Shown: positions 1,093-9,772 of the stretch, piece by piece
Position numbering within the stretch: position 1 is the stretch's first letter
Layout: every line of letters begins with the position of its first letter
Origin: Escherichia coli
Lineage (GTDB): Bacteria; Pseudomonadota; Gammaproteobacteria; Enterobacterales; Enterobacteriaceae
Assembly (NCBI RefSeq): GCF_030013205.1
Contig: NZ_CP122648.1
Length of the DNA stretch: 64,000 nucleotides
Direction: 5' to 3' (one strand)
Made by a program: the position numbers and the translations under genes
The notes under the pieces: generated by a model
Told to the model about the DNA's origin: nothing
What the model saw: the letters and a program-made list of their open reading frames with translations, nothing else
Databases searched by the model: none

Positions 1093-1184
1093 GGAAGGGG
1101 TCCTCCTCATGGGGGGATACGAGAAACGGGCAATTCTACGGCAACTCTTCAGGCAGGGAAAATAATCTGACAGAAAATTGCCGT

Positions 1185-2141
1185 TCAGTGCTGCTGCAAA
1201 AAGTCTTCAATGTCAGCCAGTGAGGATATCCCTTCCATCGGACCTTGCCGCATTACGGCGAGCGCGCCGCTGGCATTTGCATATTGCAGTGCCTTATGTG
1301 CCGGGAAACCGGATAAGAAAAGAGTGATAAACGTTGCGCCAAAGCAGTCGCCTGCACCCGTTGGATCGATAATTTCGATATCGTGGCCTGTAACATGCTG
1401 GGCGTGTAATGTACCGTTTTTAAGCTTGTAATAGCTGGCCCCACGCTGGGCGCGTTTTATCGCCACATGTTTTACGCCGCCGTGGAGAAGATCGCTAACA
1501 ATCTGTTCTTCTGACAGATTTTTGTGACGCGCGAAGAAAGGGAGTTCGCTTTCGCTGGGGATAAAAATATCCGTATATTCAATCAAATAATCGAGAGCCT
1601 GCGCCATTTCAGGAATACTCAGCATCTCTTTGCGAATATTGGGATCGAAAGAAACGGTGCCGCCAGCCGATTTGATCGTCGTTATTGCTTTACGCATGAC
1701 ATCGATCATGCGAAATGAGAACAATGATGAGCCCACAATATGCAGATGGTTACACTGTTTTAGCAGATCCTTATCAATGTGCTCAGCAGTAAACAAACCG
1801 CAGGCGCTGTTAGGGATATTAAAGACGAAATCCCGCTGCTGGGGATTTTGATAACTCACGAATGCCGTACCTGTTACGGCATTGTTCATAACATGGATCC
1901 CATCGGTAATGACACCTTCATGACGGAGACGCTCTATAATGAGTCGGCCAAAATCATCATTACCAACACATCCGAAGAAGATGGCCCGATGGGACAGTTT
2001 TGCCACCTGAGCAGCAAAAATTGCTGGTGCACCGCTGGGAAATGGCCCGATAAACTCCCCAGGCTGAGTGAATTTTTGATGTGGGTTGCGGGACAAAAAC
2101 TCGGCCAGCAATTCGCCCATAGAGCAGATAGTTATTGTCAC
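1185..2141 (-). CDS. PfkB-family carbohydrate kinase, KdgK-like (islet kinase A)
   Basis: ORF 1185..2195; contains the PfkB signature DPTGAGDCFGATF and an N-terminal IGE..E / GPFPSGAPAIF region; paralogous to the kinase at 7676-8638. Start chosen as the GTG at 2141 preceded by AGAGGGG; the upstream ATG at 2195 would overlap the regulator gene by 44 nt. Confidence 0.8.
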   Translation of the reverse strand: MTITICSMGELLAEFLSRNPHQKFTQPGEFIGPFPSGAPAIFAAQVAKLSHRAIFFGCVGNDDFGRLIIERLRHEGVITDGIHVMNNAVTGTAFVSYQNPQQRDFVFNIPNSACGLFTAEHIDKDLLKQCNHLHIVGSSLFSFRMIDVMRKAITTIKSAGGTVSFDPNIRKEMLSIPEMAQALDYLIEYTDIFIPSESELPFFARHKNLSEEQIVSDLLHGGVKHVAIKRAQRGASYYKLKNGTLHAQHVTGHDIEIIDPTGAGDCFGATFITLFLSGFPAHKALQYANASGALAVMRQGPMEGISSLADIEDFLQQH

Positions 2142-2151
2142 AAAACCCCTC

Positions 2152-2982
2152 TCATTCCTGAAGCCTCTCGCGATTGGACCAAGTAAAGCACTCATTACTG
2201 GTATAAAGGATAACGAAATCAGCCGACTGCAATTGTTGCTGATATTGTTCGTTAATGCTGCGGCTGACGATCACATTTTCTGCCTGATGCAAATGCCCGA
2301 TAGCAGCCGTTGATGGCGCAGGATCGGCGGCAACGATAACTGTCTTATTCTGGGCATGATCGAAACAGAGCTGCCAGGCAGCGGCAAGTCTGGGAACGTT
2401 GATATTTAAAGTACCATCAGCATCCAGATGGCTGATTTCCAGAATGCTGTGTGTAATGGTGAAATGCTGAAGTGCCTGTTCGAGCGGTTTTCCGGCCAGT
2501 GCGGTGTCGGGGCGCAGCATTTCACTGCCAGCCAGTATTATTTCGCCATCAATAAACTGATTTGCCAGCAGCGCATGTTCGGGATCGTTGGTGATCAGAC
2601 GCAGTTTTTTCACTTCGCTGAGCAAGGGAATGATCTTACGACAGATTGTCCCATGTCCAAGAAATAGCGTGTCACGATCCCGAATTAACCGTGCGCAATG
2701 TCGTGCTATTTCCATTTGTTGTGCCAGAGACAATGGCGCGATCGGTTGTATCGCTTCTGGTTCAGAGGAGAGTGGTGTCGCAATAGCACCGCCAAATGAT
2801 CGCTTTAAATATCCCTGTTGCTCCAGATAACTGAGATCGCCGCGGATCGTCACGCCAGAGACACCAAGTTGCGCAGATAAGTCATCAACTTTGATTTCAC
2901 CCTGGGCGGCAACAATTTCTGCAATTTTTAATCTGCGTTTCAGTAGGTTAGACGATTTTCTCGGCACGTTAACACTCTTCAT
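2152..2982 (-). CDS. DeoR-family transcriptional regulator (HTH plus sugar-phosphate-binding domain)
   Basis: 276-aa ORF; N-terminal segment RLKIAEIVAAQGEIKVDDLSAQLGVSGVTIRGDLSYLEQQGYLKRSFGGA resembles the DeoR/GlpR/AgaR HTH; co-directional with and immediately upstream of kinase A. Confidence 0.8.
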   Translation of the reverse strand: MKSVNVPRKSSNLLKRRLKIAEIVAAQGEIKVDDLSAQLGVSGVTIRGDLSYLEQQGYLKRSFGGAIATPLSSEPEAIQPIAPLSLAQQMEIARHCARLIRDRDTLFLGHGTICRKIIPLLSEVKKLRLITNDPEHALLANQFIDGEIILAGSEMLRPDTALAGKPLEQALQHFTITHSILEISHLDADGTLNINVPRLAAAWQLCFDHAQNKTVIVAADPAPSTAAIGHLHQAENVIVSRSINEQYQQQLQSADFVILYTSNECFTWSNRERLQE

Positions 2983-3323
2983 TGGCCTTTAATGCGTAAC
3001 ACTATAGCCCCTTGTATTTTTCTTTGAAAGTTATCCTTCAATAATATCGACAATTCGAAAAGAAAATCATGGGCCAAAAATCGCAACGAAAATAGCTTAA
3101 TGCATTGAAAAATAAATGAATTAATTCATATTTATGCAGAGGTGTTATTGGTTTCACTTGCAAAGTGAAAAACAAATTAAGTTATTTTTTGTAAGTTATT
3201 TTGATGATATTCGACATGCATCACGCTTTTTTCCGCTTTTGCTGTGCTAGTTTGCTTTCAAAATGAAAGTGAAGATTCTCTTTCTTCATTTTGTAAGGCG
3301 AACGACAAATAACAGGAGCTGCG
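2983..3323. promoter_or_regulatory. divergent promoter/operator region between the regulator-kinase operon and the aldolase-transporter operon
   Basis: 341 bp, AT-rich and non-coding, flanked by divergent start codons. Contains perfect palindromes ATGAATTAATTCAT (3116-3129), TTTCACTT-gca-AAGTGAAA (3152-3170) and CTTTCA-aaa-TGAAAG (3255-3269); AAGTGAA recurs. Confidence 0.6.
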
Positions 3324-8638: not shown

Positions 8639-9681
8639 AAAACGAAATTTGGTCGTGGATTGGCGATCTCTCGCAGGTTGCCGGAATTAAACACTATGAG
8701 TTACGTAGTGGCAGAGCAAAGGGGACAGAAGCGTTTGATGTCCGTACTGGTGCGGGACTGGCATTTACGGTGGTAAAAGATCGCGCGCTGGATATTGCAT
8801 GGGCCAGCTACAAGGACACTGCGCTCTCTTTTATCACCCCCAACGGCATTGTCGCCCCCGCTTTTTTTGAGTCTCATGGCAACGGGTTTTTACGTAGCTT
8901 CTACGCGGGGTTACTGACTACCTGCGGACTTAGCTACATTGGCACGCCCTGTGAGGATGACGGAGAAACGCTGGGGTTACACGGGCGTTTGGCTGCGACT
9001 CCAGCAGAAGAGGTGGGGTATCGCACAGAACGGACCGACGACGGCATTGAATTTGTCATCAATGGCAAAGTACGGGAAACACGATTGTTCGGTGAAAATC
9101 TGACGCTGGAAAGGACCATTCGCTGCCGTTATGGCGAAAATGTGCTGCGCATTGAAGACAAGGTGACTAATCATGGTTTCACCCGCCAGCCGCTGCAAAT
9201 TCTTTATCACTTTAATTACGGCTGGCCTTTATTATCGCCACAGGCAGAAATCTTGCTGTCGGCTAAAAGCGTAACGCCACGAACCCCGCATGCGGCGGAA
9301 GGGTTAACCAGTCATCTGGAGATTTGTACCCCACAGCCCGGTTTTGACGAGCAAGTTTACTATCTCACGTTGAATAGCGACAGTCAGGGGATGAGTAAAG
9401 TTGCGCTGGTGAACGCCGAACTGGGGTGGGGAATTTACGAGAAATTCGACACCATGCAGCTACCCAACTTTATCCAGTGGAAAAATTTAGGCGCGGGTGA
9501 ATATGTTATGGGGCTGGAGGTCAGCAATAGTTTTCCTGACGGTCGTGATAAAGAACGAGCGCAGGGGCGTCTGCCCTTTATAGAGCCAGGGGAAACAAAG
9601 ACATACTGCTTTGAGCTGGGAATTGTTGATGGCGATGCTGAAATTAGCGCGTTGAAAGCGGAAATTGCAAGCTACCGTTAG
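8635..9681 (+). CDS. galactose-mutarotase-like (aldose-1-epimerase superfamily, possibly DUF4432) protein of unknown function
   Basis: 348-aa ORF whose ATG overlaps the kinase B stop (ATGA). Contains a YHFNYGWP motif; the family assignment is from pattern memory and is not verified. Confidence 0.6.
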   Translation: MKNEIWSWIGDLSQVAGIKHYELRSGRAKGTEAFDVRTGAGLAFTVVKDRALDIAWASYKDTALSFITPNGIVAPAFFESHGNGFLRSFYAGLLTTCGLSYIGTPCEDDGETLGLHGRLAATPAEEVGYRTERTDDGIEFVINGKVRETRLFGENLTLERTIRCRYGENVLRIEDKVTNHGFTRQPLQILYHFNYGWPLLSPQAEILLSAKSVTPRTPHAAEGLTSHLEICTPQPGFDEQVYYLTLNSDSQGMSKVALVNAELGWGIYEKFDTMQLPNFIQWKNLGAGEYVMGLEVSNSFPDGRDKERAQGRLPFIEPGETKTYCFELGIVDGDAEISALKAEIASYR

Positions 9682-9697
9682 CTAACGGCAATAAAAA

Positions 9698-9724
9698 CGC
9701 CGGGCAGCGTTAACAGGCCCGGCG
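9698..9724. terminator. GC-rich hairpin in the convergent gap between the islet and accC
   Basis: Inverted repeat CGCCGGGC / GCCCGGCG around a short loop, lying between the stop of the mutarotase-like gene (9681) and the stop of accC (9773). Confidence 0.5.
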
Positions 9725-9772
9725 TTGATTACGTTCTTTGCTAAGCGCGATGAAAACACCGCGCGTCACAAA

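Follow-up and report, generated by a model that had tools for sequence, protein, structure and literature searches.

What are eight additional genes doing between yhdT and accC, and have they been described before? They lie, as intact open reading frames in two divergent operons, in a 64,000-nucleotide stretch of Escherichia coli DNA (the window), and we are highly confident that positions 1093-9772 correspond to tagKR/tagYABCDE, the locus through which E. coli Nissle 1917 (EcN) uses D-tagatose. Publications already cover this locus along with its substrate, pathway and regulator, so it is not new. What the present analysis adds are the exact junctions, a carrier count of 26% in a larger genome set, signs of weaker constraint on tagE, and the finding that a tagR-tagK-like pair is also present at PTS-type tagatose/galactitol-like loci.

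A first-pass annotation had reported the eight extra genes, and comparison with K-12, where the yhdT-accC spacer measures 108 bp, bears this out. K-12 homology ends at window position 1091 and picks up again at 9773, so that the islet that replaces this spacer spans 1093-9772 (8,680 bp). The right-hand limit had been placed exactly, at 9772; the left-hand one had been set at 1111 instead of 1093, because a longer, ATG-started yhdT reading frame was taken. In islet carriers, yhdT (850-1092, minus strand, as annotated in RefSeq for an identical strain) starts with GTG, read directly from the sequence as CAC at 1090-1092 where K-12 has CAT, and the junction falls directly at this codon. The left spacer (1093-1184), with one difference from EcN, carries an AGGAGG Shine-Dalgarno motif 10 nt upstream of the GTG. 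On the other side, the annotated accC (9773-11122, minus strand) encodes a protein that is identical to that of EcN and shares its RefSeq protein accession with K-12-derived MC4100. Directly after tagE, a scan for terminator-like elements matched a GC-rich hairpin followed by a U-run (9696-9726, minus strand; folding energy -24.2 kcal/mol, z = -3.7), which in islet carriers probably terminates accBC transcription. Neither islet edge, including the left spacer, showed significant similarity to a remnant of the K-12 yhdT-accC spacer.

The islet also differs from its surroundings in composition. Its GC content stands at 46.3%, while the remainder of the window has 52.0% (Mann-Whitney p = 0.0003 over 1-kb bins), and no other 8,681-bp segment outside the islet falls below 49.3%. 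As had been proposed from the sequence, the AT-richness extends to the transporter genes (42.0-45.2% GC, versus 53.2% for accC and 55.6% for yhdT). The same annotation had described a metabolic, non-mobile islet, and this description stood up: in RefSeq, the identical strain has no integrase or IS annotated in the islet, a tRNA search there found none, and a search for flanking direct or inverted repeats returned only chance-sized matches. With no integrase or transposase, tRNA target or flanking repeats, the islet does not qualify as a mobile genomic island (integrative element, phage or ICE).

The assignment to the tag locus follows from a close match along the entire region. Over their full length, window positions 1-12000 align with EcN (NZ_CP058217) at 98.05% identity, and the two loci share the chromosomal site, the eight genes, their order, orientation and lengths, and the 341-bp regulatory region. 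They reside in different host strains, and the differences are only allelic: each protein departs at 2-10 amino acids, and the regulatory region has 16 substitutions. The first 12 kb of the window are identical to the pig isolate ETEC1748. All eight genes are free of internal stops and under purifying selection (pN/pS 0.03-0.19). The first-pass annotation could neither assign a substrate nor say whether the locus had been described, and had itself listed, among the outcomes that would count against it, a match to an operon already characterised and of proven substrate. Such a match exists, since the locus has been characterised in EcN and D-tagatose proven there (PMC9720028, PMC12226905). In that strain, loss of the six genes tagYABCDE, or of just tagD, prevents growth on D-tagatose; growth returns with a plasmid bearing all six genes, which also enables K-12, BL21 and W to grow on this sugar; tag transcripts increase >40-fold to >1000-fold on tagatose; and the wild type uses up all the tagatose supplied, at concentrations up to 40 mM (PMC9720028). 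The islet genes also correspond to the UPEC-specific gene set c4013-c4018, listed in 2010 (PMC2831201). Judging from the EcN, K-12, B and W results, the allele in this window would be expected to support growth on D-tagatose.

In the route proposed for EcN (Ha et al. 2022, PMC9720028), the TagABC importer would take up free D-tagatose, TagD would phosphorylate this sugar, giving tagatose-6-P, PfkA, a core phosphofructokinase, would produce tagatose-1,6-bisphosphate, and TagY would cleave this to DHAP and glyceraldehyde-3-P, both feeding glycolysis. The EcN locus and the family models agree in outline with what had been read from the sequence, namely import of a free ketohexose, phosphorylation and class II aldolase cleavage. 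Phosphorylation had been suggested to occur "possibly twice"; two steps are indeed involved, although the second is assigned in the published genetics to PfkA and not to an islet kinase, as K-12 lacking pfkA fails to grow on tagatose with the six-gene plasmid (PMC9720028); this plasmid does not include tagK, so that TagK may still play a part.

The family models give these steps varying degrees of support. TagY (3324-4178, plus strand; two amino acid differences from EcN) is a class II D-tagatose-1,6-bisphosphate aldolase that passes the equivalog TIGR01858 over residues 3-284 (477.6 bits, cut-off 443.55) and scores 529.7 bits against the GatY subfamily model NF009374 (cut-off 383). Downstream, tagA (4214-5104, plus strand; four differences) encodes a predicted RbsB-like periplasmic sugar-binding protein whose top NCBIfam match is RbsB (160 bits, under the cut-off of 337). 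The ABC ATPase TagB (5165-6664, plus strand; four differences) has two nucleotide-binding domains and matches XylG, AraG and RbsA over its full length, and the permease TagC (6665-7654, plus strand; three differences) matches AraH and RbsC along its whole length, all below the respective cut-offs. TagABC therefore has the make-up of an RbsBAC-type importer, with a binding protein, a double-NBD ATPase, one permease and full-length family matches. Since all three proteins fall below every equivalog cut-off, they are not orthologues of a named transporter. TagD (7676-8638, plus strand; three differences), the D-tagatose kinase that yields tagatose-6-P, reaches 413.9 bits against the tagatose kinase model NF049991, just short of the cut-off of 420, and is nearly identical to PDB 3IQ0/3K9E; despite the sub-cut-off score, the EcN deletion phenotype supports this function.

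The last gene, tagE (8635-9681, plus strand; ten differences), encodes a DUF4432 protein (Pfam PF14486, E = 3e-104) with a predicted galactose-mutarotase fold. Its AlphaFold2 model (pLDDT 92.5) superposes on 3TY1 with a TM-score of 0.91 and on the B. subtilis and L. lactis GalM structures with 0.61-0.64, and Foldseek assigns the modelled fold a likeness to the GalM family with probability 1.00. The two nevertheless belong to different Pfam families (DUF4432 for TagE and Aldose_epim for GalM), and a profile comparison of TagE with E. coli GalM (hhalign) found no sequence similarity. Across 31 TagE homologues, H116, H192 and E295 never vary, and their order and spacing presumably resemble those of the L. 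lactis GalM catalytic residues. TagE may act as an accessory mutarotase, accelerating ring opening of the mainly pyranose sugar and thereby allowing phosphorylation at O6. With a pN/pS of 0.19, tagE shows signs of being less constrained than the neighbouring genes.

Regulation likewise follows the EcN pattern, for which Park et al. (2025, PMC12226905) showed that TagR acts as a repressor responding to tagatose, mapped the promoters and determined transcription starts by dRNA-seq. Here, tagR (2152-2982, minus strand; two amino acid differences from EcN HW372_RS02440) encodes the DeoR/GlpR-family repressor of the tag operon, with full-length but sub-cut-off matches to the AgaR, GlpR and SrlR models. 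The divergent tagR-tagY region (2983-3323) is as long as that of EcN, at 341 bp, and contains the 16 substitutions noted above. A consensus scan placed Preg at 3001-3028 on the minus strand (-35 TTCAAA, 16-nt spacer, -10 TATAGT), both hexamers and their spacing being as reported in EcN. On the plus strand, Ptag (3227-3253) retains the EcN -10 element TAGTTT at 3248-3253, while its -35 reads TTTTTT here versus TTTTTG in EcN through a substitution at 3232. A predicted CRP site (TTCGA-N6-TCACG; 3210-3225, plus strand) exactly matches the published one. The predicted TagR operator tagO1 (3255-3273, plus strand) overlaps the tag transcription start and has one mismatch to the published 19-mer, a match for which 0.04 occurrences are expected by chance; the second, tagO2 (3279-3297, minus strand), is an exact match, which zero shuffles reproduced. 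Both are likewise predicted operators as published for EcN (PMC12226905). TagR, made from Preg at a low constant level, would repress Ptag until tagatose becomes available, and the CRP site may impose catabolite control on top. In the Nissle probiotic, the TagR/Ptag pair is now used to drive inducible expression.

How widespread, and how old, is the islet? Among complete E. coli genomes, 1,419 out of 5,426 (26%) carry it, where carriage means a match to 80% or more of the 12-kb query; the non-carriers sampled each match the flanks alone, or 28% of the query. Phylogroup B2 is home to most extraintestinal and adherent-invasive strains. According to Ha et al., the islet is present in 93% of B2 genomes (PMC9720028). 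Its frequency in this phylogroup, together with the sale of D-tagatose as a sweetener, lends the islet some biological importance. It lacks mobility genes and behaves like a long-standing polymorphism, present or absent at one fixed place in the chromosome. The horizontal acquisition proposed in the first-pass annotation fits the composition, but a recent gain does not fit the strain divergence or the copy at the same site in Klebsiella huaxiensis: the acquisition looks old because alleles diverge at least as much as the flanks (1.4-2.6% between E. coli strains in the islet versus 0.8-1.9% in the flanks) and because K. huaxiensis shares the site. This species has the same eight genes there at 71-91% amino acid identity, next to a yhdT 76% and a panF 86% identical. 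Taken with the absence of mobility genes and repeats, these data could also mean that an early enterobacterial ancestor already had the islet at accC/yhdT, and that repeated loss or flank recombination, with no recent horizontal gain, produced the patchy distribution. We regard this as a credible scenario, if one with somewhat less than an even chance of being right, given that the islet GC content in both genera still lies 5-6 points under the surrounding sequence sampled, that most Enterobacteriaceae lack the islet, and that the Yersinia ABC-type version sits at another site.

The role of the second kinase is the other point on which readings diverge. tagK (1185-2120, minus strand; two amino acid differences from EcN HW372_RS02435), co-transcribed with tagR, encodes a putative PfkB-family sugar kinase that may prime induction or provide the second phosphorylation. 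TagK is 52% identical to TagD; its top NCBIfam match is NF049991 (343.2 bits, not reaching the cut-off of 420), and with TIGR03168, the hexose-phosphate kinase group, it reaches just 51 bits. A TagR-TagK-like pair stands beside the tagatose-bisphosphate aldolase gene both at the ABC-type loci of E. coli, Yersinia and K. huaxiensis and at the gat-like, PTS-type loci that K. pneumoniae and Salmonella have. A less probable reading is that tagR-tagK forms a conserved functional module, in which TagK may be a tagatose-6-P 1-kinase or the maker of a TagR effector, and that TagE may be a dispensable tagatose mutarotase feeding the 6-kinase.

Were TagK a dedicated tagatose-6-phosphate 1-kinase, the islet would be self-sufficient. 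In keeping with this, tagK is undisrupted and shows purifying selection (pN/pS 0.049); ABC- and PTS-type loci alike repeat the arrangement in which a DeoR regulator precedes a TagK-like kinase, with both divergent from a class II aldolase gene; and the PTS-type loci, judging from the gat pathway, would also proceed via tagatose-6-P. PfkA would then be needed only because the plasmid used in the pfkA test, pHCE-6, holds tagYABCDE alone (PMC9720028). Yet the relatedness of TagK to the free-sugar kinase TagD, its best match to the tagatose kinase model rather than TIGR03168, the nearly equal identity of the Klebsiella/Salmonella kinases to TagD (52-54%) and TagK (56-58%), which blurs their orthology, and the merely two-fold or so increase of tagRK transcripts on tagatose (PMC9720028) all make this unlikely. 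We give the same low likelihood to a sensing role, in which TagK would be a low-level constitutive tagatose 6-kinase whose product is the phosphorylated TagR effector that switches on the repressed operon. The location of tagK on the near-constitutive tagR transcript is consistent with this, as is the retention of the regulator-kinase pair across locus types, and the usual effectors of DeoR-family sugar repressors are phosphorylated intermediates. Deletion of tagD alone stops growth (PMC9720028), so TagK cannot carry catabolic flux, which leaves room for such a function. The inducer in the model of Park et al., however, is free D-tagatose, and nothing reported contradicts it (PMC12226905); moreover, sugar would enter phosphorylated in the PTS-type loci, where a free-sugar sensing kinase would be less obviously useful.

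Less probable still is that the locus arose to use a different ketohexose, or tagatose formed from some other compound in the gut, with D-tagatose a laboratory substrate: D-tagatose is rare in nature, so that the ecological substrate range could be wider, the transporter components lack any curated equivalog match and TagE homologues occur in loci for several different sugars, but the >1000-fold induction by tagatose, its complete consumption by EcN up to 40 mM, the aldolase model passed by TagY and the tagatose kinase model that ranks first for both kinases speak against it. Among the substrates first listed, tagatose is upheld by the EcN genetics, whereas keto-deoxy sugar acids find no support, as TagY passes the tagatose-bisphosphate aldolase equivalog and both kinases best fit the tagatose kinase model.

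Outside E. coli, Sinorhizobium meliloti and Agrobacterium tumefaciens also combine, in a similar layout, an ABC importer with a tagatose kinase that forms tagatose-6-P; their clusters have an epimerase gene where the islet has tagE, and tagatose-6-P is epimerised to fructose-6-P without a bisphosphate aldolase (PMC9720028). TagY belongs to the same aldolase family as the K-12 GatY/GatZ and KbaY/KbaZ systems, with EcN TagY 63.7% identical to GatY according to Ha et al. (PMC9720028). By annotation and family models, the islet differs from these in having no GatZ/KbaZ-like partner gene. The PTS-type tagatose/galactitol loci of Klebsiella and Salmonella, which we take to be those named tagKTH-gatYZABCD in the literature, differ from the islet in using PTS uptake instead of an ABC system, in possessing a short 1-PFK-like kinase and a GatZ-like partner for the aldolase, in lacking a DUF4432 gene, and in a regulator just 39-42% identical to TagR. 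At the same time, they share with the islet a class II aldolase 70-71% identical to TagY, a divergent DeoR regulator with, after it, a PfkB kinase that is 56-58% identical to TagK, and AAATGAAAG-type motifs in the intergenic region.

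The eight genes lying between yhdT and accC are the D-tagatose locus already characterised in E. coli Nissle 1917 (EcN), and not a new system. By comparing EcN with K-12, Ha et al. 2022 (PMC9720028) identified, at the accC-yhdT boundary, a region of 8.5 kb and eight genes whose gene content is exactly that of the islet, and window 1-12000 aligns end to end with EcN at 98.05% identity, with all gene lengths identical, no disrupted gene and 2-10 residue differences per protein. In that study, EcN lost growth on D-tagatose upon deletion of the six-gene operon or of the operon kinase alone, whereas a plasmid carrying the six genes restored growth and also conferred it on K-12, BL21(DE3) and W. 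Tagatose raised all six transcripts by over 40-fold (the first three by over 1000-fold), while those of the regulator-kinase pair rose only about two-fold (PMC9720028). The pathway described there runs from extracellular to cytosolic tagatose, and then via tagatose-6-P and tagatose-1,6-bisphosphate to G3P and DHAP. We use the gene names of Park et al. 2025 (PMC12226905); the cluster had appeared as c4013-c4018 in a 2010 listing of UPEC-specific genes, its sugar specificity then being unknown (PMC2831201). The first-pass annotation, which described a carbohydrate-catabolism islet of unassigned substrate and left open whether it had been described, was therefore right in kind, but the EcN operon had been characterised, with D-tagatose as its proven substrate (Ha et al. 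2022, PMC9720028), an outcome that the first-pass annotation had itself listed as a refutation. What remains of interest is the roles of TagK and TagE.

The islet is flanked on the left by yhdT (850-1092, minus strand) and on the right by accC (9773-11122, minus strand). On the minus strand it encodes the PfkB-family kinase TagK (1185-2120) and the DeoR-family regulator TagR (2152-2982). Across a 341-bp gap, divergent plus-strand genes encode the class II aldolase TagY (3324-4178), the periplasmic binding protein TagA (4214-5104), the ABC ATPase TagB (5165-6664), the permease TagC (6665-7654), a second PfkB kinase, TagD (7676-8638), and the 348-aa protein TagE (8635-9681). All eight genes are intact, and the RefSeq annotation of ETEC1748, a strain with 100% identity to window 1-12000, lists them too. 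In K-12 strains MG1655 and MC4100 the yhdT-accC spacer is only 108 bp, bearing out the insertion proposed from the sequence. Homology to K-12 stops at window 1091 and picks up again at 9773, and the start codon of the minus-strand gene yhdT begins at base 1092, so the block spans 1093-9772 (8,680 bp) and replaces the entire K-12 spacer. The extent first proposed, 1111-9772, was exact at its end but followed a longer, ATG-started yhdT ORF at its start. Local alignments against shuffled sequences revealed no significant remnant of the 108-bp spacer at either islet edge (the observed scores were reached by 59/500 and 22/500 shuffles), and since these alignments were no better than chance, a precise insertion point within the K-12 spacer cannot be placed.

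The left junction (window 1090-1110) falls on the start codon of yhdT: carriers, the window included, use GTG there, and K-12 uses ATG. Islet DNA thus supplies the AGGAGG ribosome-binding site, along with all that lies upstream of yhdT-panF, so that the expression signals of yhdT-panF differ between carriers and non-carriers. At the other end, a GC-rich minus-strand hairpin followed by a U-run (9696-9726; -24.2 kcal/mol, z = -3.7) is probably the accBC terminator in carriers, standing in for the K-12 spacer.

In line with the published physiology, family assignments support tagatose as the substrate. TagY scores above the equivalog cut-off for tagatose-bisphosphate aldolase (477.6 bits versus 443.55), and the best model for both TagD and TagK is tagatose kinase (413.9 and 343.2 bits, both below the cut-off of 420), with fructokinase, ribokinase and KDG-kinase models scoring far lower. 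A keto-deoxy sugar acid, which the first-pass annotation had kept as an option, is excluded by these kinase and aldolase scores, the KDG kinase models reaching 128-144 bits against 343-414 for tagatose kinase. TagA, TagB and TagC match components of ribose/arabinose/xylose-type importers over their whole length, below every equivalog cut-off, and TagD is nearly identical to PDB 3IQ0 and 3K9E, which were deposited as putative ribokinase.

The regulatory region is also shared. With dRNA-seq, Park et al. 2025 (PMC12226905) located two transcription starts; they also predicted the promoters of the operon (Ptag) and of tagR (Preg), a CRP site and two operators, and showed that TagR is a tagatose-responsive repressor. 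All of the published elements are found in the window: the predicted operator tagO2 (3279-3297), the predicted CRP site (3210-3225) and the Ptag -10 (3248-3253) match exactly, the predicted operator tagO1 (3255-3273) has one mismatch, and the Preg hexamers with their 16-nt spacer occupy 3001-3028. Of the 341 intergenic positions, 16 are substituted relative to EcN; one of these falls within the Ptag -35 hexamer and another within tagO1.

As anticipated from the sequence alone, the islet is AT-rich, at 46.3% GC versus 52.0% for the remainder of the window (Mann-Whitney p = 0.0003 for 1-kb bins), and its transporter genes are lowest, at 42.0-45.2%. Every other stretch of the islet's length in the 64 kb has at least 49.3% GC. 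The earlier view that mobility genes are lacking also held: there was no integrase or IS in the islet annotation, the search for tRNA genes at the islet found none, and no flanking repeat exceeded chance size. The islet is carried by 1,419 of 5,426 complete E. coli genomes (26%), a carrier being a genome that holds at least 80% of the 12-kb query, and all of the non-carrier rows sampled match the flanks only.

Sequence comparisons make the islet look like an old polymorphism and not a recent import into this strain. Divergence among four E. coli carriers is 1.4-2.6% in the islet and 0.8-1.9% in the flanks. In Klebsiella huaxiensis, islet proteins are 71-91% identical to those of the window, and the flanking yhdT and panF are 76% and 86% identical. 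We also considered a co-transferred flank tract; measured per kilobase, the left and right flanks show similar identity to K-12 and to EcN (about 95-99% each), which gives no indication of B2-like flanks having arrived together with the islet. In contrast with the reading of an old polymorphism, islet GC lies 5-6 points under the sampled surroundings in both genera (44.7% versus 50.1% for the adjacent flank in K. huaxiensis). Within the islet, tagD (7676-8638) has a synonymous divergence (pS) of 0.125 among the four carriers, where neighbouring tag genes have 0.04-0.05; this difference of about 2.5-fold may point to an allele class that is older or recombinant.

Elsewhere in the window, an IS200C copy (IS200/IS605-family tnpA; 33478-34201) has inserted between mdh and degS; EcN and K-12 lack it at this site, and only 26/5,426 genomes match across both junctions. 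At 49630-49812, gltD is directly adjoined by yhcG, so the K-12 genes gltF-yhcADEF are absent; this arrangement is common (2,543/5,426 genomes match across it). Between tldD and yhdP (24632-24695), the K-12 alignment splits into two overlapping pieces, the interval being about 210 bp longer in K-12.

TagE belongs to Pfam DUF4432, for which our literature search found no functional study, only two incidental mentions. Its AlphaFold2 model (pLDDT 92.5) matches an uncharacterised Klebsiella structure, 3TY1, with a TM-score of 0.91, and galactose mutarotases with TM-scores of 0.61-0.64. A sequence link to E. coli GalM was not recovered by hhalign with a 31-sequence profile (probability 0.2), and on this modelling the relationship to mutarotases is visible only at the level of the fold. 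H116, H192 and E295 are invariant in 31 homologues, and their order and spacing appear to resemble those of the mutarotase catalytic residues. Homologues of TagE occur in loci with a mannitol dehydrogenase and a PfkB kinase, with an FGGY kinase, a class II aldolase and an isomerase-like gene, or with an ABC importer, a dehydrogenase and a lactonase, a spread that fits a general converter of sugar ring forms or anomers. That tagE is under weaker constraint is suggested by its pN/pS within E. coli, the largest among the tag genes (0.19; the others range from 0.03 to 0.11), by an annotated frameshift in its strain 2A copy (window 8635-9681; 8635-9682 in comparison locus L011), and by its absence from the Yersinia pseudotuberculosis version of the locus. 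TagE could be an accessory mutarotase: by accelerating ring opening of the mainly pyranose sugar, it would make O6 available to TagD; as such it may be helpful yet dispensable.

TagK is 52% identical to TagD, and its gene is intact and under purifying selection (pN/pS 0.049). Relatives closer to TagK than TagD is are found across Enterobacterales and in Gilliamella/Orbus. TagK fits a dedicated tagatose-6-P 1-kinase, and it also fits a basal kinase that would produce the TagR effector. K-12 without pfkA does not grow even with the six-gene plasmid, while K-12 without pfkB does; because that plasmid lacked tagK, the requirement for PfkA leaves both readings standing (PMC9720028).

A tagY-like aldolase gene (88% DNA identity) is also present in a blood isolate from Thailand, on a contig that is assigned to a plasmid (NZ_JBTZOT010000002.1, L008 9050-9904); it adjoins a zinc-binding dehydrogenase and lies near gatZ in a mosaic of IS1 fragments. 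In K. huaxiensis the accC/yhdT site likewise holds all eight islet genes (L014 1287-9960), whereas Y. pseudotuberculosis (L013) has tagY-A-B-C-D and a divergent regulator-kinase pair at another chromosomal site. In K. pneumoniae and Salmonella (L015 6995-9951; L016 6969-9948), a DeoR regulator followed by a PfkB kinase is divergent from a class II aldolase. The intergenic regions of these two loci hold AAATGAAAG-type motifs resembling tagO1 and tagO2. Their kinases share 56-58% identity with TagK and 52-54% with TagD, values too close for orthology with TagK to be called by identity. In both, the aldolase gene is the first of a PTS-type tagatose/galactitol-like locus that also contains GatZ-like, galactitol-type EIIC and 1-PFK-like genes. 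The occurrence of such a trio in ABC-type and PTS-type loci alike indicates a regulator-kinase-aldolase core common to different uptake systems.
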